Assembly (NCBI GenBank): GCA_964485555.1
Contig: CAZAJN010000033.1
Location: 1 to 38,962, forward strand
Direction of reading: 5' to 3'
DNA: 38,962 nt
Origin: an uncultured Bdellovibrionales bacterium
GTDB taxonomy: Bacteria; Patescibacteriota; Minisyncoccia; Moranbacterales; GWC2-37-73
Shown piece after piece: positions 1,190-38,151 of this stretch. A program made the translations under genes and the position numbers. The stretch's first letter is position 1. The number at the start of each line of letters is the position of its first letter. The notes under the pieces are model-generated. The model was not told the DNA's origin. It saw nothing but the letters and a program-made list of their open reading frames with translations, and ran no database searches.

Positions 1190-1330
1190 AGCAGCTTTTT
1201 AGGCATTAGTTTCATTAGCTTTTTAGCTTTAGGAATTCCCAAGTGCCAATAAAAACCAATAAAATTAACTTCTAATTTATAATTGAATTTTCTAACTAGC
1301 TGATAGCCTGAGAAGCTAAAAAGCTAGAGA
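1190..1330. repeat. AGCT-rich inverted repeat overlapping the mnmA stop codon
   Basis: TTAGCTTTTTAGCTTTAGG (about 1215-1233) faces CCTGAGAAGCTAAAAAGCTAG (about 1308-1328), an imperfect ~18-bp pairing across a ~75-nt loop. Same TAGCT-type motif as at 521-556, 13512-13602 and 24765-24812. Confidence 0.6.
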
Positions 1331-2448
1331 ATTGTTCCTCCTCCGAGCACTTCATTGTCGTCAGCATAGAAAACCGCTGATTGTCCTGGCGTAATCGCTT
1401 TTTGCGCCTCCATGAATTCAACTTCGCACATAGTCTTTTCTCTTCTCTTGTTTGTTTCTTGTTTTCTTATTATACCACGCACCAAAGGATGACGATACCT
1501 GATCTTCACATTAACTTCCATCGGGAAAGTTGGCTCATCCGCAATCCAATTCTTGAGCTCAACCAGCATGGTTTTCTTGAAAATCTTTTCATCAGTCTCA
1601 TCATTGGTCACGATCAATTGATTATTTTCAAAATCTCTGTCAACCACAAAATATGGGCCGTTTCCACCAATATTGATTCCTTTTCTTTGTCCAATAGTAT
1701 AAATTTCCAAACCATCATGGGTACCGATTTTTTCTCCTTCAGTATTAACAATATCACCAACTGATAATGTCAGATTGCGCTTGATGAATTTGGTCGGCGT
1801 CTTTTCCGGAGTGAAGCAAAGTCCTTGCGAATCTTCCTTGTCAAAAATCGGCAGTTTCAATTTTTCAGCAATCTTTCTGATTTCAGGTTTCTTATATCCG
1901 CCCACTGGAAACATGATCCGAGAAAGTTGTTTTTGTGAAAGAGAATACAAAAAATACGTCTGATCCTTTTCCTCGTCAGATGATGTGTAGAGATGGTATT
2001 TCCCCTGCCTACCGGCAGGCAAGCATCTATCTTTTCTTACCTTGGCATAATGTCCAGTTGCAACAAAATCAGCGTCCATTTCCAACATTTTCTTGTACAA
2101 AAAATTGAATTTGATCCTTTCATTGCAAACCACGCACGGATTTGGAGTCCTTCCAGCTTTGATTTCTTCCAGAAAATAATCCACCACTTCCTTTTTGAAT
2201 TCCTCAGCCGCGTTCACTGTATAAAGCGGAATATCCAAAATCTGAGCGACTTTGCGAGCATCCTGTTGGGATTCCACCGAACAACATTTGTTCTCCCTCA
2301 ACTCATCCTGTCCAGGCTCTTTCCAGAAATGCAAAAAAACTCCCACGACATCATAGCCCTGCTCTTTTAAAAGTGCGGCTGCTACAGAAGAATCAACCCC
2401 CGCGCTCATCCCCACAATCACTCGTTTTTTTGCTGCTTTTTTATTCAT
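1324..2448 (-). CDS. mnmA: tRNA-specific 2-thiouridylase MnmA
   Basis: PP-loop VGMSAGVDSSVAA at the N-terminus, ATGHYA…KDQTYFLY, full-length 374 aa. Confidence 0.93.
   Translation of the reverse strand: MNKKAAKKRVIVGMSAGVDSSVAAALLKEQGYDVVGVFLHFWKEPGQDELRENKCCSVESQQDARKVAQILDIPLYTVNAAEEFKKEVVDYFLEEIKAGRTPNPCVVCNERIKFNFLYKKMLEMDADFVATGHYAKVRKDRCLPAGRQGKYHLYTSSDEEKDQTYFLYSLSQKQLSRIMFPVGGYKKPEIRKIAEKLKLPIFDKEDSQGLCFTPEKTPTKFIKRNLTLSVGDIVNTEGEKIGTHDGLEIYTIGQRKGINIGGNGPYFVVDRDFENNQLIVTNDETDEKIFKKTMLVELKNWIADEPTFPMEVNVKIRYRHPLVRGIIRKQETNKRREKTMCEVEFMEAQKAITPGQSAVFYADDNEVLGGGTIL
2004..2021. repeat. 18-nt GC-rich palindromic element, copy 1 (in-frame inside mnmA)
   Basis: CCTGCCTACCGGCAGGCA is identical to 13273-13290. 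On the coding strand it reads TTG CCT GCC GGT AGG CAG = LPAGRQ. Confidence 0.85.
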
Positions 2449-2632: not shown

Positions 2633-2746
2633 TTACACAATAGATGCAATAACCTCATCAAAGCTTGAAACGATCTTGAAAGGATTTCCCTTTTCAAGCC
2701 TATGAAAATCTATCGCTTTGTTCTTTGAATCACTTTCCCAACTCAT
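2633..2746 (-). pseudogene. remnant of a HAD-hydrolase 3' end (paralogous to 5373..5957)
   Basis: 2655-2704 matches 5398-5447 at 46/50 nt. The minus-strand frame gives …IDFHRLEKGNPFKIVSSFDEVIASIV*, compared with …VDFGFHERHRLEKGNPFKIVSRFDEILEVVNT* in the intact gene. Only ~37 codons are open. Confidence 0.45.
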
Positions 2747-2892
2747 CAATAAGAGATTTTTCGCCTTCCATATTTGACACACCAGTATTATAAAACTTAC
2801 CATCAGAAACTTTCAATTTCAGCTGGTGACATTTTGTCACTGATTCATTTCCTTCCTTGTTGAGTCTTTCGTTTTTCGTGCTTTTTAAAACA

Positions 2893-3714
2893 CTAAATTA
2901 TAGCTCTTTTTGCTCGAATTTTACTACCAAAGAATTTACTGCCTAGAACATCAAATTTTTTTGTTAAATCAGTAGAATAAAAGTCACGCACTTTATCCTT
3001 GGTCAATATATTTTCTATTTTTGGATGTCTCAATAAATAGTCTTTCAGCTTTTTTGCCACAATTTTTTCTTCAGAAACGACGTTTATGTCTTTGCCAACA
3101 ATTTTTCTTATTCTTGATTCCAATATTCCATAGTGGGTGCATCCAAGAATAAGAGTATCTATCTTTTTATCAACCAGCGGTTTCAGATATTTTTTCAATA
3201 TAATATCGGTTATCTTTGAATCATGTTCCCCAGCTTCAACAATAGGAACGAGCAGCGGACAGGAATTTTGATATACGCACACATCGCCATCAAGCTTCAG
3301 TAATTCTCTTATGAAAGATTCTAATGAAACAGTGCTCTCGGTTGCCATGACACCAATTTTTTTATTCTTAGTTTTTGAAACAGCAAATTGAGCAGCGGGG
3401 ACTATAACACCCAACACTTTCTTGTTTGGATGATGAACTGGCAGATGTTCTTGCTGAATTCTGCGGAGAGCATCACTTGATGCAGTGTTACAAGCTAGGA
3501 TTATTAGCTCACAATTTTTACTAAACAAAAAATCTACAGCCTGCTTTGTAAATTCATAAATAATTTCCTTTGAACGAGTTCCGTAGGGTACACGAGCGGT
3601 ATCCCCCAAATAAATATAATTATATTCAGGCAATTCCTTTACAATGCCTTTCATAATATTCAATCCTCCAAACCCAGAGTCGAATATTCCGATTGATTTG
3701 TTATCTTTACCCAT
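2893..3714 (-). CDS. murI: glutamate racemase
   Basis: GIFDSGFGGL, ILACNTAS and LGCTHY catalytic-Cys motifs. I moved the start to M13 (3714) so it does not overlap 3722..4000; the ORF-track start at 3750 remains possible. Confidence 0.9.
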   Translation of the reverse strand: MGKDNKSIGIFDSGFGGLNIMKGIVKELPEYNYIYLGDTARVPYGTRSKEIIYEFTKQAVDFLFSKNCELIILACNTASSDALRRIQQEHLPVHHPNKKVLGVIVPAAQFAVSKTKNKKIGVMATESTVSLESFIRELLKLDGDVCVYQNSCPLLVPIVEAGEHDSKITDIILKKYLKPLVDKKIDTLILGCTHYGILESRIRKIVGKDINVVSEEKIVAKKLKDYLLRHPKIENILTKDKVRDFYSTDLTKKFDVLGSKFFGSKIRAKRAII

Positions 3715-5372: not shown

Positions 5373-5957
5373 TTATGTATTCACAACCTCCAATATCTCA
5401 TCAAACCTCGAAACAATCTTGAATGGATTTCCCTTTTCAAGCCTATGTCGCTCATGAAATCCAAAATCCACTGCAATGGTTTTAAGTTCAACCTTATTTG
5501 CTTCTAAAATATCCCCCAATGTGTCAGTCACAAAAATACAATCCTCAGCTGTAAGGTTATACTTTTCAAATATATATTTGAATTTTTTGACTTTGGATTG
5601 ATGTGTCTGAGCCCCAAGTATTTCTTTGAAAATGTGAGTGAAATTATTGTTTTGGAAATAAATATTTAGTGCCTCTTCCTGATTAGAGGAAACGATAAAC
5701 AAGTTATATTTCTCTGACAGCTTTTCCAAATTCTTTTTTATGTTCGCATCTATTTCTAAATATTGAAATGCCTCGCTTTGCAATTTGTAGGATTCCTTAT
5801 CTTTTCTTTTTTGCTCTTCAGTGATTTCCCTTTCAAAAAAATTTCCACTGAAAAAATCCTTGAATTCGTCTTCGTCTATTCCTTTCCCGAAGATTCTATA
5901 GGCTAACTCATACGTATCATGAATCACTCCATCAAAATCAAATATTATCGTTTTCAT
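5373..5957 (-). CDS. HAD-superfamily hydrolase
   Basis: Motif I IIFDFDGVIHDT at the N-terminus, then VSSN and VTDTLGDI motifs. Confidence 0.8.
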   Translation of the reverse strand: MKTIIFDFDGVIHDTYELAYRIFGKGIDEDEFKDFFSGNFFEREITEEQKRKDKESYKLQSEAFQYLEIDANIKKNLEKLSEKYNLFIVSSNQEEALNIYFQNNNFTHIFKEILGAQTHQSKVKKFKYIFEKYNLTAEDCIFVTDTLGDILEANKVELKTIAVDFGFHERHRLEKGNPFKIVSRFDEILEVVNT

Positions 5958-8174: not shown

Positions 8175-8200
8175 ACTAGCGTTGTAGTAAATATTTACTT

Positions 8201-8268
8201 GAATTACGAATCATGAATCATGAATTACGCAAAAGCATTTTTTCTTTATTCACGATTCCAGATTCCAT
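8201..8268. repeat. heptamer-armed inverted repeat (GAATYAY family)
   Basis: GAATTAC GAATCAT GAATCAT GAATTAC (8201-8228) faces ATTCACG ATTCCAG ATTCCAT (8248-8268). Confidence 0.75.
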
Positions 8269-9826: not shown

Positions 9827-10879
9827 TTATTTTTTGACTGAATACGCCCCTTCTTTTGTTTTGGAAAAATAATTGTTCAAATTTATGACAATCGTGGATT
9901 TCTTCACATGTCTGATCTCAAGCACCTTTTTCAAAATTTCATCCCTATTCAAAGGTTTTGATGATTTCTTCAAAATCTCCTCGATCACATCTTTGACGGT
10001 CCCTTTTTTGTATCCCCATTCAACGAGAGCATAAATTCCTCTTCCAACCAAAACGAAGTTCTTGTCTTTGATCAGCTCATTGTGAACAGTTTGCGGATGT
10101 GTCTTTTTCTTATTTAAATGATACTGGTCTATTTTTTTAGCGATATCACGAAAATGCAATGGCTCTCCAGCTTCCTTCAAAACCAAATACGATTTTTCCC
10201 TTGTTCCCTTGGGAGAAATCTCCTTCCATTTTCCAATTCCCCATTTTTTGAAAGTGTTCTGTTTTATTTCTGCAGAAACTTCCAAATAACTCTTCAGCGT
10301 TTCCTTGTTCAAACTTCCGTCATCTTTCAGCAGCTCAAACATTTCTTCAACTGAAAGAGGTTTCTTTTCCCTGACAAGCACGCTCACTGCAGAATCCTTA
10401 ACTTCTCGCCATCTTGCGATGTCGAAATCCGGAAGCATGAATGAAAACAAAAGCTCATCCTTGATTTCAATGCCTTTGACCGCGTCAGTACATTCAAGAA
10501 AAAAACAAACTGAAGCTTCCTCGCTTGCTTTACCTTTCCCGAGAGTTTTCAGTAATTGCTTCTTTTCCATTATACCACCATTTTCTGCAATAGCCAAAAC
10601 GATCATCTCTTGAACTTGAATGAACAATGGGTCAAGATTTTTCTCTTTCACCTTTTTGAGAACTTCACGAATAACTTGGCGCACTCGTTCTCGAGTGATG
10701 CCGTATTTTTTCCCGATCTCTTCCAAAGTAAGGGCATGAGAATTGAAAACGCCATAACGGGAAAAGATAATTTCCTGACTACGAGTTGAAAAATCAGACA
10801 CGATCCTTTTTAACGCCTCGGAAAAAAACAAGGATCTCTCCTGTTCATTTGATATTTCCTGCTTATTGACTGTTTCCAT
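9827..10879 (-). CDS. sigma-70 region-4 HTH / HARE-HTH domain protein
   Basis: LTLEEIGKKYGITRERVRQVIREVLKK is sigma region 4.2-like. PLHFRDIAKKI…TVHNELIKDKNFVLVGRGIYALVEWGY and a second similar C-terminal unit are HARE-HTH-like. The ORF-track start at 10915 is a TTG; I prefer the ATG at 10879 (METVNKQ…). Confidence 0.6.
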   Translation of the reverse strand: METVNKQEISNEQERSLFFSEALKRIVSDFSTRSQEIIFSRYGVFNSHALTLEEIGKKYGITRERVRQVIREVLKKVKEKNLDPLFIQVQEMIVLAIAENGGIMEKKQLLKTLGKGKASEEASVCFFLECTDAVKGIEIKDELLFSFMLPDFDIARWREVKDSAVSVLVREKKPLSVEEMFELLKDDGSLNKETLKSYLEVSAEIKQNTFKKWGIGKWKEISPKGTREKSYLVLKEAGEPLHFRDIAKKIDQYHLNKKKTHPQTVHNELIKDKNFVLVGRGIYALVEWGYKKGTVKDVIEEILKKSSKPLNRDEILKKVLEIRHVKKSTIVINLNNYFSKTKEGAYSVKK

Positions 10880-10962
10880 ACGATTTAAACAAAATGAATA
10901 AAAATTATGTTTCAAATTATATTAACACATATTAAAATTTTGTCAAGCATTTTAACGCCACC

Positions 10963-10990
10963 AAAAAGAGGGATGCGAAATCCCCCTTTT
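10963..10990 (-). terminator. putative intrinsic terminator after pheT
   Basis: AAAAAGAGGGAT-gcgaa-ATCCCCCTTTT: a short stem flanked by an A-run and a T-run, about 30 nt past the pheT stop. Confidence 0.45.
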
Positions 10991-11017
10991 ATGTCCTTGT
11001 TTAAAGCTAAAACAGGC

Positions 11018-13510
11018 CTATCTGCGCATTTTCACTTTTAGATTCTTTTCCAATTCATTTGTGATTGAAATCATAACATCATCAATCTCTTTTCCGGTCA
11101 AGGTTCGCTCGTCAGCGCCCAAAATTACATGGAAAGCCAAGCTCGAGGTGTCATCTGCAAAATCTATCACGTCAAACATGTCCACATCCAAAACAAAATC
11201 GCCGCCCGCTTTTTGAATTACCATCAGAATTTCATCCACCAAAACAGAGCTCTCCACTAACAATGAAATATCCCTGGTCACCACTGGATGTTTTCTGATA
11301 GGAGAAAATTCTCTTTCCGCCTCTGAAACAGCGCCGAGTTTTTCCATATCAAATTCGAACATCGCAACCCTGGAACTGATGTCAAATTCTTCGAGCACAA
11401 AAGGATTTATTTCTCCGAGAAATCCGATACTTTCGCCGGAACCTTGAATTTTAATCTCAGCAGTTCTGCTCTGGTGCCAAAGGGAGGAAGGAGTTTCAAT
11501 GGAACTACCCTCAAACGTATCATAATAATGGTCAGTTATGCCGATCTGTTCAAGCAAGTGGTCAACATAACTCTTCGCTTCAAAGAAAACAGATCCATGC
11601 CTTTTGTCCATCTTTTCTTCTTTGGCACTTTTCTTTTCCATAACTATCGCGCCGGTCAACAAATTCTTTTCTTCAGGCAGCGCTTCGCCATTCACCCAAT
11701 ATACTTTTCCGATTTCAAAAATATTGAATTGCTTGAAATTCTTAAGATTTTCACGAACATTCTTCAAAAGATTTGGAACCAAACTCACTCTCATCAACGC
11801 CTGATCAAGACTCATGGGAGCCTCCAATTCCAGATGTTTCAACAAGCCGAGTTGAGCCGCTTTTGCATCTTTCTCGGAATAGAAAGAATAATTATAAACT
11901 TCATCAAAACCAAGTCCTGTCAAAACATTTTTCGTTTGCCTGACAAAAGCGCGCTGAAGATTGACAGGAGCTGGTTGAACTGAAACCAATGGGGCTACTG
12001 TCGAAATTTTTTCATAACCATAAATCCTGCCTATTTCCTCAATCAAATCCTCCTGGGTTGCAATATCCAGTCGATAAGTTGGAATTTCGCAGTTTATGAC
12101 ATTGCCCATGCCGGAAACTTTAATTCCCAAAAGTGACAGGATTTTTTTGCTTTCCTTTGAAGGAATAGCAATACCCAAAAGCTTATCAGCATATGCCAAA
12201 TCCAGTTTTATGCTCCAAGTCTTTTTCTTTTCCGGATATTCATCCAAACCACCTTCCAGGGCTCCACCAGCAACATGTTCAAGAATTTCTATCACTCGCA
12301 CCATGGCTTTTTCAGCAATATTCGGATCGATTTCTTTTTCAAATCTGAGGGCCGCGTCCGAAGATATTCCCAATCTCATCCTGGTCCGCCTGATGGTGGC
12401 CGGCGCAAAATTGGCTGATTCCAAAACGATATTTTTCGTTTCTTTGGTGACTCCAGTTTCCAATCCTCCCATTATGCCGGCAAGTGCAATTGCTTCTTCA
12501 TTATTAGCAATAACAATATCCTCAGAAGAAAGTTTCTTACTGCTTCCATCTAAAATAGTAATTTCTTCCCCCTCTCTTGCATTGCGAACTATTATTTTTA
12601 CGGTTTGATTATTGATATTTGAATTTTGAGATTTGCTTGGAATTTGTAATTTATCATTTGGAATTTCACTTTTTATCTTATCAAAATCGAAAGCATGGAG
12701 TGGTTGCCCGATTTCCAACATTACGAGATTGGTAGCATCCACAATATTATTGATCGGACGGATGCCGCAAAGTTGAAGTCTGTTCTTGATCCATTGTGGC
12801 GAATCTGAGACCTCCACACCCTCCAAAACTGCTCCGACATAGCGACAGCAAATGTTCTTATCGGCAATTTGCACGGAAAGTTTTTTTGATTTAATTTTGG
12901 AAAGTTTCAGCCCGTCATAGTCATAGTCAATTTCTCGTCCTTCCAGAATTGCAATTTCTCGTCCCATTCCAACATGCGAAAGTGCATCATGTGCGCGATT
13001 AGCCAAAATGTCGATTTCAATCATGGCATCGTCAAGATCAAGCACGTCCTTGATTGGAGTTCCAATTTCCAAATTTCTATCCAAAAGCAGGATTCCTTCA
13101 TGACTGGTCCCTAGTCCAAGTTCGTCTTCCGCACAAAGCATTCCGAAGGATTTTACTCCGCGAATTTCTGCTTCCTTGATCTTGAAGTCGCCAGGAAGCG
13201 TCGTGCCTACTGTTGCAACTGGAACTTTGTCACCGACTGAAATATTTTTAGCGCCACAAACAATTTGCAGAACCTGCCTACCGGCAGGCAGGCCTCCTTC
13301 TTTTATCAATGTCCTGGTCACTTGCAATTTGTCAGCATCCGGATGCTTTTCAATTTCCAAAATTTCGCCAACAACCACGCCATCAAGCTTATTTTCAACT
13401 TTTTCAATACCCTCAACTTCGAAAGCGTGCAACATCAACAGATCCTTAATTTCTTCTGGAGTTTTTTCACTTCCCGATATTTCACTGAGCCAATTGTAAC
13501 TATATTTCAT
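11018..13510 (-). CDS. pheT: phenylalanine--tRNA ligase beta subunit
   Basis: 830 aa. N-terminal tRNA-binding domain HPDADKL…QIVCGAKN…GMLCAEDELGL. Located directly downstream of pheS. Confidence 0.93.
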   Translation of the reverse strand: MKYSYNWLSEISGSEKTPEEIKDLLMLHAFEVEGIEKVENKLDGVVVGEILEIEKHPDADKLQVTRTLIKEGGLPAGRQVLQIVCGAKNISVGDKVPVATVGTTLPGDFKIKEAEIRGVKSFGMLCAEDELGLGTSHEGILLLDRNLEIGTPIKDVLDLDDAMIEIDILANRAHDALSHVGMGREIAILEGREIDYDYDGLKLSKIKSKKLSVQIADKNICCRYVGAVLEGVEVSDSPQWIKNRLQLCGIRPINNIVDATNLVMLEIGQPLHAFDFDKIKSEIPNDKLQIPSKSQNSNINNQTVKIIVRNAREGEEITILDGSSKKLSSEDIVIANNEEAIALAGIMGGLETGVTKETKNIVLESANFAPATIRRTRMRLGISSDAALRFEKEIDPNIAEKAMVRVIEILEHVAGGALEGGLDEYPEKKKTWSIKLDLAYADKLLGIAIPSKESKKILSLLGIKVSGMGNVINCEIPTYRLDIATQEDLIEEIGRIYGYEKISTVAPLVSVQPAPVNLQRAFVRQTKNVLTGLGFDEVYNYSFYSEKDAKAAQLGLLKHLELEAPMSLDQALMRVSLVPNLLKNVRENLKNFKQFNIFEIGKVYWVNGEALPEEKNLLTGAIVMEKKSAKEEKMDKRHGSVFFEAKSYVDHLLEQIGITDHYYDTFEGSSIETPSSLWHQSRTAEIKIQGSGESIGFLGEINPFVLEEFDISSRVAMFEFDMEKLGAVSEAEREFSPIRKHPVVTRDISLLVESSVLVDEILMVIQKAGGDFVLDVDMFDVIDFADDTSSLAFHVILGADERTLTGKEIDDVMISITNELEKNLKVKMRR
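13273..13290. repeat. 18-nt GC-rich palindromic element, copy 2 (in-frame inside pheT)
   Basis: CCTGCCTACCGGCAGGCA, extended to the 20-nt near-palindrome CCTGCCTACCGGCAGGCAGG. On the coding strand it reads CTG CCT GCC GGT AGG CAG = LPAGRQ. Confidence 0.85.
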
Positions 13511-14662: not shown

Positions 14663-14736
14663 TGTCATTCCGGACTTGATCCGGAATCTAGAGCACACAT
14701 ATCCATACAAGATCCTGAAACAAGTTCAGGATGACA
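14663..14736. repeat. double-hairpin palindromic element, copy A
   Basis: TGTCAT-TCCGGA-cttga-TCCGGA-ATCTAGAG…GAT-CCTGAA-acaag-TTCAGG-ATGACA. Same architecture as 38081-38151. Confidence 0.8.
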
Positions 14737-14748
14737 CAAGCAAATAAA

Positions 14749-18384: not shown

Positions 18385-20055
18385 TTAATCCGATTTTATA
18401 TCGGATTTACGTACTCCTACCATCCAAGTCCTGCCATGGATCCAGTCACTTATGATGAATCTGAGCATGGTGCGGGTGATGACGACTGCTGTAAACATCG
18501 ACACCACCACTCCGATGAAAAGTGAGGCAGCAAATCCTTTGACGAAACCTGTACCCATGAGATACAAGATTCCAGCAGTCAAAAGAGAGGAAACATTTCC
18601 GTCGCGAATCGAGGTCCAGGCACGTTTGAATCCTTCTTCCAATGAATTTGCGATCGTCCTGCCATTTCTTATTTCCTCTTTTGTTCTTTCAAAAATCAGA
18701 ATGTTGGCATCAACAGCCATCCCGATGGACAAGACAAAACCGGCAATTCCTGAAAGTGTCAGAGTAATTCCAGTAAATTTGAAAATAGTGATCATGAGCG
18801 CAGTGTAAATAAGAAGCGCCAAAGATGCCACAAGTCCCAGGAATCGATAGAAGATCAACATGAAAACAATGACAGCACCAAGACCTATCGCGCCAGCTAT
18901 AAGACTTTTATTGAGCGAATCTTGCCCCAGGGAAGCCTCCACGCTTTGCTGTGAAACCAACGTAAGTGGGACAGGCAATGCACCTGTATTCAATTTTTGA
19001 ACCAACTCCTTGGCTTCCTCCAAAGCAAAATTTCCAGTAATGACAGCTTCTCCATTGGTGATTTCGGATTGCACGGTTGGAGCACTAATAATGCTTCCAT
19101 CCAAAAGTATGGCTATCGTCTTTCCAAGATTAGCCTTGGTAAGTTCAGAAAACAGTTTGGTTCCTTCATCGTCAAACTGCAATGAAATTTGCGGCTCTCC
19201 CAGACCTTGACTTTGAAAAGTCACCGTTGCATTTTTCAAATTCTTACCAGTAAGCCCGGTGCCTTTGTATTTAAGTTCGGGATATTGATCCAGAGAAGTT
19301 TTTGGCAGCAAGATGTGAGCTGAGTGAACTTCCTTGTCCTCCCCCTCCCCGCGCGATTCTACAAATTTTATGATGTGCCAACCGAAATCTGACTCAACCA
19401 GCTCCGGATGGATTTCCCCAGGCTTAAGATTTTTTTCAAATAAAACCTGGTCAAATTCTGGCACAAATGTTCCCTTTTTGACGAAATCCAAATCTCCACC
19501 CTTTTCTTTTGAGCCAGAATCCTGACTGTTTTCCTTGGCCAATTCTTCAAAATTTCCTCCCTTTTTGATTTGATCAAGCAATTGAGCAGCTTTTTCTTTT
19601 GATTGCTGGTTTTGAGAATCAAGCATCTGTTGGATCTGTGGATCTACGCCTTCTTCTTTGAATTCAAGCAAGGGAGTTCCTTTGATCTGTTGTTTGGCTT
19701 GTTCAATGTCCTTTATGCCTGGTATTTCTATGACAACTCGGTTTTCATCCCCGCTTTTTGTAGTATAAACCAACGGCTCACCCACACCAAAAGCATTTAT
19801 GCGCCTTTCAATGACATCCTGAACACCTTCCAATGCCTCGCCAACCTTAGATTGGTCGATGCCTGACACATCAGCCTTGTATTCCAGATGGCTGCCACCT
19901 TGCAGGTCAAGCCCCAGATTTATCTTGAACTTATTCAAAACGTCATATAATGCAGGAACTTTGCTGACTGATTGAGGATAGGAAACAAGTCCGGCAAACA
20001 AAGCCAGGACAACAATGGCACCAAACTTCAATTGAATTTTTTTCTTATTGTTCAT
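18385..20055 (-). CDS. secD: protein translocase subunit SecD with inserted parvulin-like segment
   Basis: The GMAVDANILIFERTKEE TM core is present. I trimmed the ORF-track start (20334) to the ATG at 20055 (MNNKKKIQLKFGAIVVLALFAGLV, the signal-anchor). The discarded 93 codons cover a promoter, a terminator and a structured element. Confidence 0.9.
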   Translation of the reverse strand: MNNKKKIQLKFGAIVVLALFAGLVSYPQSVSKVPALYDVLNKFKINLGLDLQGGSHLEYKADVSGIDQSKVGEALEGVQDVIERRINAFGVGEPLVYTTKSGDENRVVIEIPGIKDIEQAKQQIKGTPLLEFKEEGVDPQIQQMLDSQNQQSKEKAAQLLDQIKKGGNFEELAKENSQDSGSKEKGGDLDFVKKGTFVPEFDQVLFEKNLKPGEIHPELVESDFGWHIIKFVESRGEGEDKEVHSAHILLPKTSLDQYPELKYKGTGLTGKNLKNATVTFQSQGLGEPQISLQFDDEGTKLFSELTKANLGKTIAILLDGSIISAPTVQSEITNGEAVITGNFALEEAKELVQKLNTGALPVPLTLVSQQSVEASLGQDSLNKSLIAGAIGLGAVIVFMLIFYRFLGLVASLALLIYTALMITIFKFTGITLTLSGIAGFVLSIGMAVDANILIFERTKEEIRNGRTIANSLEEGFKRAWTSIRDGNVSSLLTAGILYLMGTGFVKGFAASLFIGVVVSMFTAVVITRTMLRFIISDWIHGRTWMVGVRKSDIKSD

Positions 20056-20084
20056 CCGGTATGCATAAAATATTAATATCACTA

Positions 20085-20113
20085 ATAATACTAAACAAAC
20101 ATTGATTTTGCAA
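20085..20113 (-). promoter_or_regulatory. putative secD promoter
   Basis: Minus strand reads TTGCAA (20113-20108), N17, TATTAT (20090-20085). These are the same hexamers as the tyrS promoter. About 30 nt upstream of the ATG at 20055. Confidence 0.5.
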
Positions 20114-20117
20114 TACT

Positions 20118-20143
20118 GACAAAAAATACCCTCGAAGGTATTT
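20118..20143 (-). terminator. putative (bidirectional) intrinsic terminator
   Basis: AAATACC-ctcgaa-GGTATTT (20124-20143) with an A-run on one side and a T-run on the other. The stem is AT-rich and therefore weak. Confidence 0.4.
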
Positions 20144-20170
20144 CTTTTTGTAACACGTAGAAATATTTTT

Positions 20171-20352
20171 GACTTACGCGTTTGAAATGGATTCTGTTTT
20201 CTGCTGGCATGCACGTTTTCTTTTGAGGCAACAGCGAGCTCCGCCAGCTGGCGGAAGCGAGGTCTTAGCTCTTGATCATTAACTCCTTGATCAAGAGCGT
20301 GCCGAAAAAGGAAATGTGCATGCCAGTTCATCATCTTTCAAGCGCGTAGGTC
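20171..20352. ncRNA. candidate structured RNA / nested palindromic element (strand unresolved)
   Basis: Hand-traced helices: 20171-20187/20336-20352 (17 bp), 20204-20224/20306-20326 (21 bp), 20227-20230/20300-20303, and 20268-20278/20288-20298 (11 bp). See the finding for detail. Confidence 0.45.
20240..20255. repeat. 16-nt palindrome TCCGCCAGCTGGCGGA (family copy 1)
   Basis: Perfect palindrome, flanked by AGCGAG (20233-20238) and AGCGAG (20256-20261). Confidence 0.85.
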
Positions 20353-24786: not shown

Positions 24787-24802
24787 TCCGCCAACTGGCG
24801 GA
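24787..24802. repeat. 16-nt palindrome TCCGCCAACTGGCGGA (family copy 2)
   Basis: Flanked by CTAATAAGCT (24775-24784) and CTAAGAAGCT (24803-24812). Confidence 0.85.
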
Positions 24803-24814
24803 CTAAGAAGCTGC

Positions 24815-25177
24815 TTAAAATCTTGCATTCTCATCCAGCACTACTTTTTTCTTCAAAGACATTGCGCCTCTTTTCTTCAGAGTTCTCAAGCGGTCTTTCA
24901 TGTGCGTGATCTGCTCTTGAAGCTCATCCACCACCATATCAATTGAGGCCTCAATGCTGTCAGTGGTGTTGTCTGCGCGGAACATGTTGCGCGGAGTGTG
25001 AGCCATGACTTCCACTCTGAATTTTCCTTTTTTGTCCAAATCAATTTCAACTTCGGATTTGATGATATTGTCGACAAACTTATCCAAGGTGCTAATTCTT
25101 TTTTCAATATATTCTCTGGTCTTCTCATCCACCTCGACCCCCTTGAAAAAAAATCTGATGTTTTCAATCGTGCTCAT
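24815..25177 (-). CDS. hpf: ribosome hibernation promoting factor / RaiA family (short form)
   Basis: MSTIENIRFFFKGVEVDEKTREYIEKRISTLDKF…FRVEVMAHTP…ADNTTDSIEASIDMVVDELQEQI pattern. I trimmed the start from 25210 to M12 (25177) because the extension would cover the palindrome at 25210-25225. Confidence 0.8.
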   Translation of the reverse strand: MSTIENIRFFFKGVEVDEKTREYIEKRISTLDKFVDNIIKSEVEIDLDKKGKFRVEVMAHTPRNMFRADNTTDSIEASIDMVVDELQEQITHMKDRLRTLKKRGAMSLKKKVVLDENARF

Positions 25178-25209
25178 AATGTTTTTAACCGATACGAACC
25201 TACGAATCA

Positions 25210-25225
25210 TCCGCCAACTGGCGGA
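25210..25225. repeat. 16-nt palindrome TCCGCCAACTGGCGGA (family copy 3)
   Basis: Flanked by CGAACCTACGAA (25195-25206) and CGAATCTACGAA (25227-25238). Confidence 0.85.
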
Positions 25226-33353: not shown

Positions 33354-34754
33354 CTACTGATTACTGTTTCTCAGTTTTTCTGCTACGCGCCAAACATCTC
33401 CAGCTCCCATAGTTATCAGCACATCATATTCTCCAGATTTTTCTTTCAAATATTCTACTGCTTCATCAATTGTTTCTATATATTCAGCCTTATCCCTATT
33501 ATATTTATTTATAAGCTTTACTAAGTCTTCCGACGTAGCCCCTCCTCCGGTTTCCCGAGCGCTTCCATATGTTCCGATCACAACAACTTTTTCCGTATCA
33601 TCAAAACTTTGCGCAAAGTCCTCCAAAAGGGCTTTGGTTCTGGAAAAAGTGTGGGGATGAAAAACTGTCCAAATCCTTTTTCCTTCATAGCGAGTCTTTG
33701 CACCGTTCAAAGTAGGTTTAATCTCGTCAGGATGATGAGCGTAGTCATCAATCAAGACAGCCTCGCCAAATTTTCCGATAAGTTCAAATCGGCGAGAAGT
33801 GCCCTTAGCCTGTGACAAGGATTTTTTTATCTTTTCCAAATCGAGTCCGATCGCATGCGAAAGCGCTATCACAGCAGTTGAATTCAAAACATTATGCTTT
33901 CCAGACAGCGGCGTTTCAAAAATACCCAAACTCTCATCTTCAAAAAAAACTTCAAATGATTGAAAATTTTTCTTATCTTCTTCCATGATTCGTGATTCAT
34001 GATTCATGATTCTGTACATATTATCCTCTCCAAATCCATAGGTCAGCACTTGGCAGTTGGCATCTTTTGCAACCTCAACCGTATCAGAGCTGTCACCCCA
34101 AACAACCAGAAAACCTGTCTTGGGAATTTTGGCGACAAAATCTTTGAAAACTTGCTTGTATGATTGAAAGTCCGGGAAAAAATCAGGATGATCATAGTCA
34201 ACACTGGTCAAGATCACCGACCAAGGTTGATAGAATCTCAATTTATTTTGATATTCATCCGATTCCGCAATAAAATATTCCCCCTGACCGGAAAGTGCGC
34301 TCCCTTGCCAAGCAATGACCTGGGAACCGACAATTGCACTAGGATCTTTTCCGGCGGATGCAAAAGCCTCAGCCAACATAGCAGTCGTGGTTGTTTTTCC
34401 ATGTGTTCCGCAAACTGCAATTCCTAGCTTTTCCTGAAAGAGTTTGCCCAGCATTTCAGGATAACTCAACATAGGAATTCCAGTCTTCTTGGCAGCCGCC
34501 ATTTCCTGATTGTTCTCTTCATTATAGGCTGTGGAAAAAATGATCAGATCTGAATCTCTGGGCACATTTTCAGCTGAAAATTTTTCATAAAATGGAATTT
34601 GCAGACGCTTCAAAATTTCATCTGTATAAAAAACTTCTTCTGTGTCAGATCCACTCACCTCAATTCCTCGACTTTTCAAAATCTCAGCCACAGCAGTCAT
34701 GCCAGCCCCCTTAATTCCAATGCAATAAATTTTCTTCAAATCTTTTATTTCCAT
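33354..34754 (-). CDS. murC: UDP-N-acetylmuramate--L-alanine ligase
   Basis: IGIKGAGMTAVAEIL and the CGTHGKTTTTAML P-loop. Sits in a dcw-type context next to murG. Confidence 0.92.
   Translation of the reverse strand: MEIKDLKKIYCIGIKGAGMTAVAEILKSRGIEVSGSDTEEVFYTDEILKRLQIPFYEKFSAENVPRDSDLIIFSTAYNEENNQEMAAAKKTGIPMLSYPEMLGKLFQEKLGIAVCGTHGKTTTTAMLAEAFASAGKDPSAIVGSQVIAWQGSALSGQGEYFIAESDEYQNKLRFYQPWSVILTSVDYDHPDFFPDFQSYKQVFKDFVAKIPKTGFLVVWGDSSDTVEVAKDANCQVLTYGFGEDNMYRIMNHESRIMEEDKKNFQSFEVFFEDESLGIFETPLSGKHNVLNSTAVIALSHAIGLDLEKIKKSLSQAKGTSRRFELIGKFGEAVLIDDYAHHPDEIKPTLNGAKTRYEGKRIWTVFHPHTFSRTKALLEDFAQSFDDTEKVVVIGTYGSARETGGGATSEDLVKLINKYNRDKAEYIETIDEAVEYLKEKSGEYDVLITMGAGDVWRVAEKLRNSNQ
33985..34012. 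repeat. tandem heptamer array inside murC coding sequence
   Basis: ATGATTC GTGATTC ATGATTC ATGATTC, which is the reverse complement of the intergenic GAATCAT units. It is read in-frame as …YRIMNHESRIMEE…. Confidence 0.8.
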
Positions 34755-35892: not shown

Positions 35893-35968
35893 GAATTATG
35901 AATTATGAATTATGAATTATGAAAATGCAAATCATACTTAATTCATGATTCATGCTTCATAATTCATC
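35893..35968. repeat. heptamer-armed inverted repeat between ftsW and murG
   Basis: GAATTAT x4 (35893-35920) plus GAAAATG, a 13-nt spacer, then ATTCATG ATTCATG CTTCATA ATTCATC (35941-35968). Confidence 0.8.
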
Positions 35969-36019
35969 TATATAGAATAAGCATACCAACAAATCTGCAA
36001 TAAATCCAGCCAGTTGAAG

Positions 36020-37933: not shown

Positions 37934-38080
37934 AAACCTAACGAAATTACAAATTTAATACAAATCTACAAATTATTCAGTATCCCGCAGAAGCCAACTA
38001 ATAATGTATTTTTACTAATAACTGATTTAATTTAAATGCCATTTTTATCTTTAAATAAGCCTGAACTTGCAACTCACTTT

Positions 38081-38151
38081 TGTCATCCTGAATTTATTTC
38101 AGGATCTAGAGTTTCGGCTTATATAGATGCTGAAACAAGTTCAGCATGACA
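38081..38151. repeat. double-hairpin palindromic element, copy B
   Basis: TGTCAT-CCTGAA-tttat-TTCAGG-ATCTAGAG…GAT-GCTGAA-acaag-TTCAGC-ATGACA. Confidence 0.8.

Follow-up and report, generated by a model that had tools for sequence, protein, structure and literature searches.

Two copies of a 20-bp palindrome inside mnmA and pheT of a Moranbacteria-lineage genome, and their probable home in GIY-YIG nuclease/tRNA cassettes

How does the same short, GC-rich palindrome come to lie in the same reading frame inside two unrelated essential genes? We ask this of a 38,962-nt contig (CAZAJN010000033.1, assembly GCA_964485555.1; the whole stretch is hereafter called the window) from an uncultured groundwater bacterium of the Moranbacteria lineage of the candidate phyla radiation (CPR). 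In this window, whose G+C content is 35-45%, an 18-mer, CCTGCCTACCGGCAGGCA, occurs letter-perfect at 2004-2021, within mnmA, and at 13273-13290, within pheT. Both copies are on the minus strand, the coding strand of the two long open reading frames (ORFs) that contain them, and each is translated as LPAGRQ. We conclude, with a probability of roughly 0.75, that these are solo copies of a 20-bp repeat, precisely inserted into mnmA and pheT, and that they belong to a family resembling repetitive extragenic palindromes (REPs) and homed in cassettes of a GIY-YIG nuclease gene and a tRNA gene.

Insertions in two essential genes

The repeat itself, first reported in a first-pass annotation made from the letters alone, is exact. 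Apart from the palindrome's own reverse strand, no third match with up to three mismatches was found across the window, and 100 dinucleotide-preserving shuffles of the window gave 0 matches. The annotation had described an element of six codons; the shared unit is instead 20 nt long, C[T/C]TGCCTGCCGGTAGGCAGG on the coding strand (2004-2023 and 13273-13292), with one difference between the copies, and the net gain relative to the closest orthologues is seven codons. The mnmA unit (2004..2023, minus strand) reads CTTGCCTGCCGGTAGGCAGG on the coding strand and, together with shifted upstream codons, encodes DRCLPAGRQ (2005-2031, minus strand). The pheT unit (13273..13292, minus strand) reads CCTGCCTGCCGGTAGGCAGG on the coding strand, is flanked by G at -1 and T at +1, and encodes GGLPAGRQ (13274-13297, minus strand), containing the G-LPAGRQ-V reading. 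A longer likeness between the two copies, 32 nt at 88%, consists of purine-rich Lys/Glu/Asp codons. We place it outside the unit because the flanks of 125 copies listed from other genomes are unconserved past -1 and +1. The palindrome folds, as its arms had suggested, and does so in two registers, with 7-8 bp around a 4-6 nt loop or with 6 bp around a GGTA loop. For the 20-mer these are an 8-bp stem with a CCGG loop and an alternative 6-bp stem with a GGTA loop, at a folding energy of about -7 kcal/mol as DNA and about -12 kcal/mol as RNA, the strands being about equal. Rfam and tRNA scans of the window gave no match.

The two host genes are mnmA, which encodes a tRNA 2-thiouridylase (1324..2448, minus strand; Pfam PF03054, PF20259 and PF20258, with PDB matches), and pheT, which encodes the beta subunit of phenylalanyl-tRNA synthetase (PheRS; 11018..13510, minus strand; homologue and PDB matches). 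LPAGRQ is absent from all 119 closest MnmA homologues (60-86% identity) and from all 120 homologues of the PheT N-terminus. Insert-free alleles, which the annotation had proposed to look for among relatives, are the rule. Because these 119 and 120 homologues lack the insert, both copies are, as judged from the alignments, lineage-specific insertions. MnmA homologues read HYAEVKN-IDG-KFHLY where the window protein reads HYAKVRK-DRCLPAGRQ-GKYHLY, and the closest PheT homologues read TKVNIGKE-VLQIVCGA where the window protein reads TRTLIKEGGLPAGRQ-VLQIVCGA, a net gain of seven residues in each case.

The path of insertion can be followed in mnmA at the level of DNA. Three orthologues (from loci L001, L237 and L238; 85-86% protein identity) read ATY GAT GGN AAA without an insert, and the window reads AGA AAA G-ATA GAT G[20-mer]GG AAA. 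The unit splits the ancestral Gly codon after its first G (GAT G^GG AAA). The ancestral ATA GAT G is retained and is read one frame off, as GAT AGA TG, because of an extra base in a run of A (AAAA, 2031..2036, minus strand; AAA or AAG in relatives) 8-12 nt upstream of the unit. The simplest account would therefore be that 20 nt entered this codon and that the A-run upstream gained one base, a path that we prefer because it leaves one substitution relative to L001, whereas a clean 21-nt insertion leaves about seven. What had been called an in-frame palindromic element is thus a true insertion in two unrelated essential genes; its in-frame character is not intrinsic, since the unit is 20 nt long and needed a compensating +1 nt in mnmA.

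Both insertions fall in loops, as the first-pass annotation had expected from characterised orthologues. In MnmA the insert occupies the turn that links the GHYA and KYHLY strands, and the PheT insert is at a turn of the N-terminal tRNA-binding (oligonucleotide/oligosaccharide-binding, OB) domain. Mapping onto solved structures places them in beta-turn gaps: a 6-residue gap at a beta-hairpin turn for MnmA against 2hma/9hln (HYARVARDE------DGTVHM), and beta-hairpin-turn gaps for PheT against 3pco/7n8y (VTKVNV--G----GDRLLDIVCGA). Related inserts are found in the same loops elsewhere. The MnmA homologue P0080 (locus L002) carries LSAGRQ, encoded by ATA GAC G[A CCTGTCTGCCGGTAGGCAGA]GA AAA, apparently at the Gly codon that corresponds to the window site, and its paired T/A change preserves the 6-bp stem. 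At the PheT position, P0204, a stand-alone tRNA-binding protein of the syntenic locus L003, carries LPADRQ, from CTTGCCTGCCGACAGACAG, and the PheT homologue P0126 carries SPQPSPSKGEG, which another palindrome seems to have produced. The MnmA and PheT loops are permissive sites that have been hit repeatedly.

The syntenic locus L003 (JGI Ga0172374_1000408, 10001-11865) also differs in gene organisation. Its PheT N-terminal tRNA-binding domain is a stand-alone protein of 155 aa, and the adjacent PheS-like protein bears an FDX-ACB domain, which suggests a PheRS architecture different from that of the 830-aa PheT of the window.

Distribution and target sites of the palindrome

Other genomes carry the palindrome too. 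When species-representative genomes were scanned with the pattern CYTGCCTGCCGGTAGGCAGG, the 20-mer was found unchanged at no fewer than 125 sites, which belong to at least 120 loci and more than 10 phyla, against about 2 sites expected by chance on our own arithmetic (596 Gb, two strands, two patterns). The over-representation foreseen for a dispersed element is therefore borne out in public species-representative genomes. Among the matches listed, the hosts include Ignavibacteria and many Bacteroidota, some of the latter in records that bear the names of cultured strains (Olivibacter oleidegradans CCM 7765, Thermobacterium salinum TK19130 and Flavobacteriaceae R38). Patescibacteria are represented by many lineages, namely Saccharibacteria, Uhrbacteria, Doudnabacteria, Buchananbacteria, Moraniibacteriota, Paceibacterota, Peribacteria and Absconditabacterales, and the others are Chloroflexota, Nitrospirae, Planctomycetes, Omnitrophota, Stahlbacteria, WOR-3, Acidobacteria, and delta- and gammaproteobacterial metagenome-assembled genomes (MAGs). 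The family consensus is a perfect palindrome, CCTGCCTGCCGGCAGGCAGG, and the window copies belong to a one-substitution GGTAGG subfamily. In viral contigs the perfect form is about three times commoner than the GGTAGG form, and it is the main form beside GIY-YIG nuclease genes. A viral-contig scan with the 16-nt core gave 33 sites, 14 of them with five extra 5' bases (GCCTG), on contigs of 33-70% G+C. The window holds two copies in 39 kb; up to 3-6 occur on some single loci or contigs elsewhere. The window copies are thus one subfamily of a cross-phylum palindrome, which is tied to the GIY-YIG nuclease/tRNA cassettes described below.

An element directed to genes, as first supposed, is not what the wider distribution shows. 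Most copies elsewhere are probably intergenic, because 72 of the 103 copies in low-GC listed loci lie in short open spans (<300 nt). Genic copies elsewhere were found in a class-I aminoacyl-tRNA synthetase of the Trp/Tyr family (GLPAGRQV), in Fpg/MutM (ACLPAGRS), in a GSDH-like protein (SLPTGRQA) and in a histidine-kinase ATPase domain. The LPAGRQ frame is used in six of eight genic copies, which hints at filtering at the level of the peptide.

Across the 125 listed sites, sequence conservation is confined to the 20-mer. Position -1 is G at 84 sites and A at 33, and position +1 is G at 70, T at 29 and C at 19, a junction bias of purine^G/T; there is no extended target motif beyond -1 and +1 at these sites, where the remaining flank positions are random. 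Insertion is precise, with neither duplication nor loss of target sequence, as seen both in the mnmA alignment and in a comparison of tRNA flanks. Some copies are nested at the exact centre (CCG^G) of other copies (L040, L056, L071 and L108), and others lie in the loops of unrelated palindromes or terminator-like hairpins (L072, L076, L085, L091, L125, L148 and L154, among others). A perfect stem of at least 6 bp brackets 11.6% of the listed sites, compared with 1.2% after flanks were exchanged between sites and 1.5% at R^K positions drawn at random from these loci. We also considered whether the G-T asymmetry of the GGTAGG form marks a functional strand, and dropped this idea because the orientation of GGTAGG shows no bias relative to GC skew (58 versus 49) or to gene direction (42 versus 37).

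A further type of palindrome, CCCTCTCC...GGAGAGGG (translated PSP..GEG), occupies the PheT loop of P0126 and also occurs at loci L068, L085, L125 and L132. The 20-mer is often found within this type, at the loop edge; different hairpin families therefore insert into one another.

Cassettes of a GIY-YIG nuclease gene and a tRNA gene

The neighbours of the palindrome were examined in both directions. In the forward test, all-versus-all clustering of about 2000 ORFs from the 120 listed genome loci, a GIY-YIG gene was found within 150 nt of the palindrome at 7 of the 120 loci, from Bacteroidota, Saccharibacteria and Dehalococcoidia. No other recurrent neighbour family was found among these ORFs, the REP-associated tyrosine transposase (RAYT) included. 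In the reverse test, a metagenome collection was searched by protein alone, which gave 285 relatives among the first 600 pattern matches, and the best 80 of the 285 loci (196 kb in total) were kept. The palindrome, allowing up to two mismatches, is present in 64 of these 80 protein-chosen loci and lies no more than 200 nt from 72 of their 83 GIY-YIG ORFs, usually 25-70 nt in front of the start or immediately behind the stop codon.

The cassette has a recurrent order: a partial tRNA copy broken by the palindrome, then a GIY-YIG ORF of 77-88 aa, then an intact tRNA gene. A mirror form also occurs, in which an intact tRNA is followed by the GIY-YIG gene and then by a 3' tRNA fragment containing the palindrome. 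The intact neighbour is mostly tRNA-Leu, with tRNA-Asn, -Lys, -Asp and -Arg also represented. At 40 of 85 cassette sites, the joined flanks of the palindrome (28 nt, ungapped, with no more than three substitutions) are present in the adjacent intact tRNA. Because the joined flanks match in this way, we regard the palindrome as a precise insertion into a redundant tRNA copy. By eye, the recurring positions within the tRNA are early in the D-loop, at the edge of D-loop and D-stem, within the GG of the D-loop, and at the 3' edge of the anticodon loop. The base at -1 is A in 70 of the 85 cassette sites.

The cassette protein consists of the Pfam GIY-YIG domain alone (77-88 aa), and among PDB structures it matches 1ywl and 1zg2 of UPF0213 best and SLX1 next. 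It is about 60-77% identical among Saccharibacteria, Moranbacteria, Buchananbacteria, Paceibacterota, Bacteroidales and the named-species records Salinimicrobium sediminis and Mucilaginibacter psychrotolerans. Such identity across lineages would fit horizontal spread. A full cassette is present in a genome from the lineage of the window itself: in the Moranbacteria genome LBTM01000014, ...ggtggaattg[CCTGCCTGCCGGCAGGCAGG]gtatacacgcc... is followed by an ATG and a 78-aa gene and then by an intact tRNA-Leu(TAG). Two further independent assemblies repeat the gene, its neighbourhood and the position of the palindrome.

Two other loci deserve mention. In L098, a Dehalococcoidia MAG, 5' fragments of tRNA-Met form an array in the region around the GIY-YIG gene (2719-3078), with another palindrome, CCCGCCYGAGGCGGGAG, in place of the D-arm, and a downstream pseudo-tRNA is broken by several different hairpins, among them the 20-mer in the T-loop. 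A GIY-YIG gene adjoining mnmA in L237 was considered as a cassette and rejected; it belongs to a different subfamily and has neither palindrome nor tRNA.

Explanations and known systems

These observations can be joined in one account. The window 18-mers would be solo copies of the 20-bp unit, placed in surface beta-turn loops in a Moranbacteria (CPR) lineage. The home of the unit would be the cassette, with its single-domain GIY-YIG gene of about 80 aa (UPF0213/Slx1-like, and resembling the Ssn nucleases for ssDNA) beside a tRNA gene. The target of copying may be DNA that is single-stranded for a short time, where the hairpin would be placed 3' of a purine and, by preference, at a hairpin-loop edge. 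Copying would depend on a cognate GIY-YIG nuclease that recognises the hairpin, together with host repair or replication, as proposed for REP/RAYT and for NTS/SsnA, the Neisseria hairpin repeat and its nuclease. Genic copies would be kept only if the loop can take seven more residues and the reading frame is mended (20 nt + 1 nt), as neutral passengers filtered by selection, and the insert is most likely a neutral passenger for this host. The identity of the palindrome across phyla would then reflect horizontal spread of the cassette through conserved tRNA genes.

Several points weigh against this account. Neither a GIY-YIG gene nor a tRNA gene was found within the window. Both window insertions rest on a single assembly (the protein is listed on 2 contigs), and although the arithmetic in pheT is again 20 + 1, its relatives (about 60-74% identity) are too distant to fix the path. 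The junction bias is not uniform, since -1 is mostly G at solo sites and mostly A at cassette sites, and the published SRM pattern fails to match the palindrome. GIY-YIG enzymes are known to hydrolyse DNA but not to join its strands, which makes the copying step the weakest in the account. A bolder form of the account would make this the smallest known trans-mobilised element: a nuclease of about 80 aa, with host ligation or repair, would paste a 20-bp palindrome into single-stranded DNA (ssDNA) loops, the nuclease gene would cross phyla on tRNA genes, the palindrome would disable the duplicated tRNA, and the whole would behave selfishly even in essential CPR genes. We offer this only tentatively, and think it more likely wrong than right.

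The most serious alternative, though a doubtful one, is that the palindrome disperses without the nuclease, by template switching or hairpin-primed repair at palindrome centres, and that the nuclease merely reads the hairpin or the cassettes accumulate the repeat. As a reader, the nuclease could use the hairpin as a recognition tag for an ssDNA 'restriction' of incoming DNA. That GIY-YIG enzymes have no strand-transfer chemistry is established knowledge and favours such a role, and about 94% of the listed genomic copies lie away from any nuclease gene. Nesting at palindrome centres and the enrichment in hairpin loops would suit palindromes as sites of breakage and repair. What SsnA has been shown to do in Neisseria, moreover, is to cut NTS-bearing ssDNA in transformation and not to mobilise NTS (PMC11893778). 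However, template switching leaves unexplained why an identical 20-mer occurs at unrelated loci across phyla, and the 80-87% linkage between nuclease and palindrome is the pattern of autonomous/non-autonomous pairs such as RAYT/REP. It is very unlikely that the unit is itself an ordinary REP mobilised by a RAYT, an HUH enzyme of the IS200/IS605-like type. Its size and hairpin are REP-like, the GGTAGG variant contains GTAG, an IS200-like ORF family is present in 2 of the 120 listed genome loci, and REPs are known inside ORFs and small palindromes (PMC3733652); yet the recurrent neighbour is the GIY-YIG gene and not a Y1 transposase, the perfect-palindrome majority form has neither GTAG nor CGTC, the GTAG of the variant is central rather than terminal, and REP families are normally lineage-specific and not identical between phyla.

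A selected function of the hairpin or of LPAGRQ in both genes, whether as mRNA structure, translational pause or protein loop, is a poorer prospect still. The use of the LPAGRQ frame in six of eight genic copies and the related inserts at corresponding loops (LSAGRQ in P0080, LPADRQ in P0204) might be read in its favour, but nearly all orthologues work without the insert, the unit is mostly intergenic, and recurrence in loops is expected of permissive sites that offer a G^G target. Least credible among the readings that we retain is a sequencing or assembly artefact, in which a fixed insertion of about 21 nt would always appear to be in frame. The first four genic cases examined do all add 21 nt, and both window inserts come from one 2012 short-read assembly. 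Set against this are the one-base difference of the mnmA copy with its separate upstream +1 nt, the paired changes that keep the 6-bp stem in L002, and the presence of the unit in cultured-strain-named records and in assemblies from many groups and contig-naming schemes. Three independent assemblies also agree on the Moranbacteria cassette, and the biological context of tRNA fragments, nuclease genes and nesting speaks likewise against an artefact. Chance or ancestral sequence is excluded by the absence of the 18-mer from 100 shuffles, by the insert-free homologues and by the 125 or more public-genome sites.

The window contains other repeats. Two inverted copies of GTCATCCTGAA-N5-TTCAGGATC (14710-14740 and 38077-38107) share the GTCAT...ATC frame of the Neisseria NTS with a different stem and do not match the published SRM pattern; this hairpin has about 85 exact sites in 53 viral-contig loci, up to 9 per contig, which makes it a further hairpin family with a wide dispersal. 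There are three copies (20240-20255, 24787-24802 and 25210-25225) of a second GC-rich palindrome, TCCGCCA[A/G]CTGGCGGA, and two of them bracket an S30AE/hibernation-factor gene (24815..25210), exactly at the start and just past the stop. It looks lineage-specific because its matches in the viral-contig scan are chance-like. This second palindrome, as TCCGCCAACTGGCGGA, was rejected as a widespread family; its 57 viral-contig matches are mostly on GC-rich contigs, with unconserved flanks. Upstream of secD, a 27-nt inverted repeat (20204-20230 and 20300-20326; 85% complementary) encloses the TCCGCC palindrome, and the stretch 20204-20326 might represent a small mobile element or a structured RNA. 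In the ORF at 18385..20334, the first 80 or so codons are probably non-coding. The SecD of this ORF (18385-20334) has a peptidyl-prolyl isomerase (Rotamase) domain inserted between its P1 subdomains, an arrangement repeated in the syntenic L003. In the spacer upstream of mnmA there is a 58-nt copy (2647-2704), about 90% identical, of the 3' end of a RecR-like gene (5391-5447). Intergenic runs of heptamer repeats (ATGATTC and GAATTAT types), partly complementary to each other, occur at 8192-8265, 33981-34012 and 35893-35974.

If the link between palindrome and nuclease holds, a 20-mer and a protein of about 80 aa would form a very compact nuclease/repeat pair shared by CPR, Bacteroidota and many other phyla. 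This bears on how REP-like hairpins spread, a long-standing open question, and on selfish DNA that crosses phyla, for which conserved tRNA genes could be landing sites. It also bears on how streamlined CPR genomes tolerate insertions in essential genes, through loop inserts and repair of the frame. Site-specific ssDNA nucleases have a practical interest as tools, and this would be a new enzyme/sequence pair. The proposal can be tested directly because genomes named as cultured strains carry the parts, the palindrome in Olivibacter and the nuclease in Salinimicrobium and Mucilaginibacter.

Neither LPAGRQ nor the 16-mer (on either strand) occurs in the literature text that we searched. The palindrome itself, its placement inside redundant tRNA fragments and its letter-for-letter identity across phyla are likewise absent from that literature, and known systems resemble the family in part. 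Rickettsia palindromic elements (RPEs), about 100-150 bp long and restricted to Rickettsia, are likewise palindromic repeats in frame in functional, often essential genes at permissive surface sites, and the first-pass annotation had named them as a conceptual parallel. The unit here is 20 bp, no multiple of 3, and spans more than 10 phyla, so that only the in-frame genic location is common, and REPs inside ORFs and the Ssn/NTS hairpin repeats are closer analogues. Clusters of GC-rich palindromes have spread in the AT-rich mitochondrial genomes of fungi, sometimes into coding regions; they too are short GC-rich hairpins, and differ in being organellar, longer and without a GIY-YIG/tRNA cassette. 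Miniature inverted-repeat transposable elements are 50-500 bp long with terminal inverted repeats and target-site duplications, whereas the present unit has 20 bp and no duplication.

Phage T4 SegB is a free-standing GIY-YIG homing endonuclease in a tRNA gene cluster and spreads with flanking tRNA sequence (PMC2330249). The likeness is a GIY-YIG gene among or beside tRNA genes, and the difference is that Seg enzymes have a DNA-binding domain and no dispersed palindrome, whereas the cassette protein is a bare catalytic domain. Di Nocera et al. 2013 (PMC3733652) describe REPs of 20-40 bp that are read in frame within ORFs, tRNA synthetase genes among them, and report small palindromes as the targets of some REP families. 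REPs and their mosaic assemblies (bacterial interspersed mosaic elements) share with the present family GC-rich hairpins that are mostly extragenic, occasionally genic and in frame, and in some cases placed in small palindromes. The terminal GTAG/CGTC tag of REP/RAYT systems is missing, since the majority form lacks both motifs and the GTAG of the variant is central. No flanking Y1 transposase recurs, an IS200-like ORF family being present at 2 of 120 listed loci and not as a recurrent neighbour of the repeat, and the identity of this palindrome across phyla sets it apart from the lineage-specific REP families.

The Ssn proteins offer the other close likeness. Each is a GIY-YIG nuclease with a single domain and about 94 aa that binds ssDNA and cuts it beside a hairpin repeat, NTS/SRM (Chenal et al. 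2025, PMC11893778), which flanks its own ssn gene and is present in hundreds of copies, rarely genic (2%) (PMC11893778). The authors liken the arrangement NTS-ssnA-NTS to insertion sequences and to REP/RAYT, and leave the route by which the repeat spreads unshown (PMC11893778). Neither CCTGCC nor GGCAGG occurs as a string in the text of PMC11893778, where tRNA, Bacteroidota and Patescibacteria also go unmentioned. Both systems combine a GIY-YIG-only protein of about 80-95 aa, a gene flanked by a hairpin repeat of 20-50 nt, dispersed solo copies and a wide distribution. The cassette family (77-88 aa) falls within the size of a single-domain GIY-YIG protein of about 80-100 aa, and its gene is flanked by the hairpin repeat (64/80 loci; 72/83 ORFs). 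The SRM pattern (HGTCWY...) is not found in the 20-mer with its flanks or elsewhere in the window. The binding and cleavage of ssDNA are those of the published Ssn proteins; the palindrome-linked protein is a predicted nuclease. The repeats are unrelated in sequence, ours being a near-perfect 20-bp palindrome without the GTCAT lead, and the cassette described here differs from the Ssn system in being tied to tRNA genes, with its repeat inside a redundant tRNA fragment.

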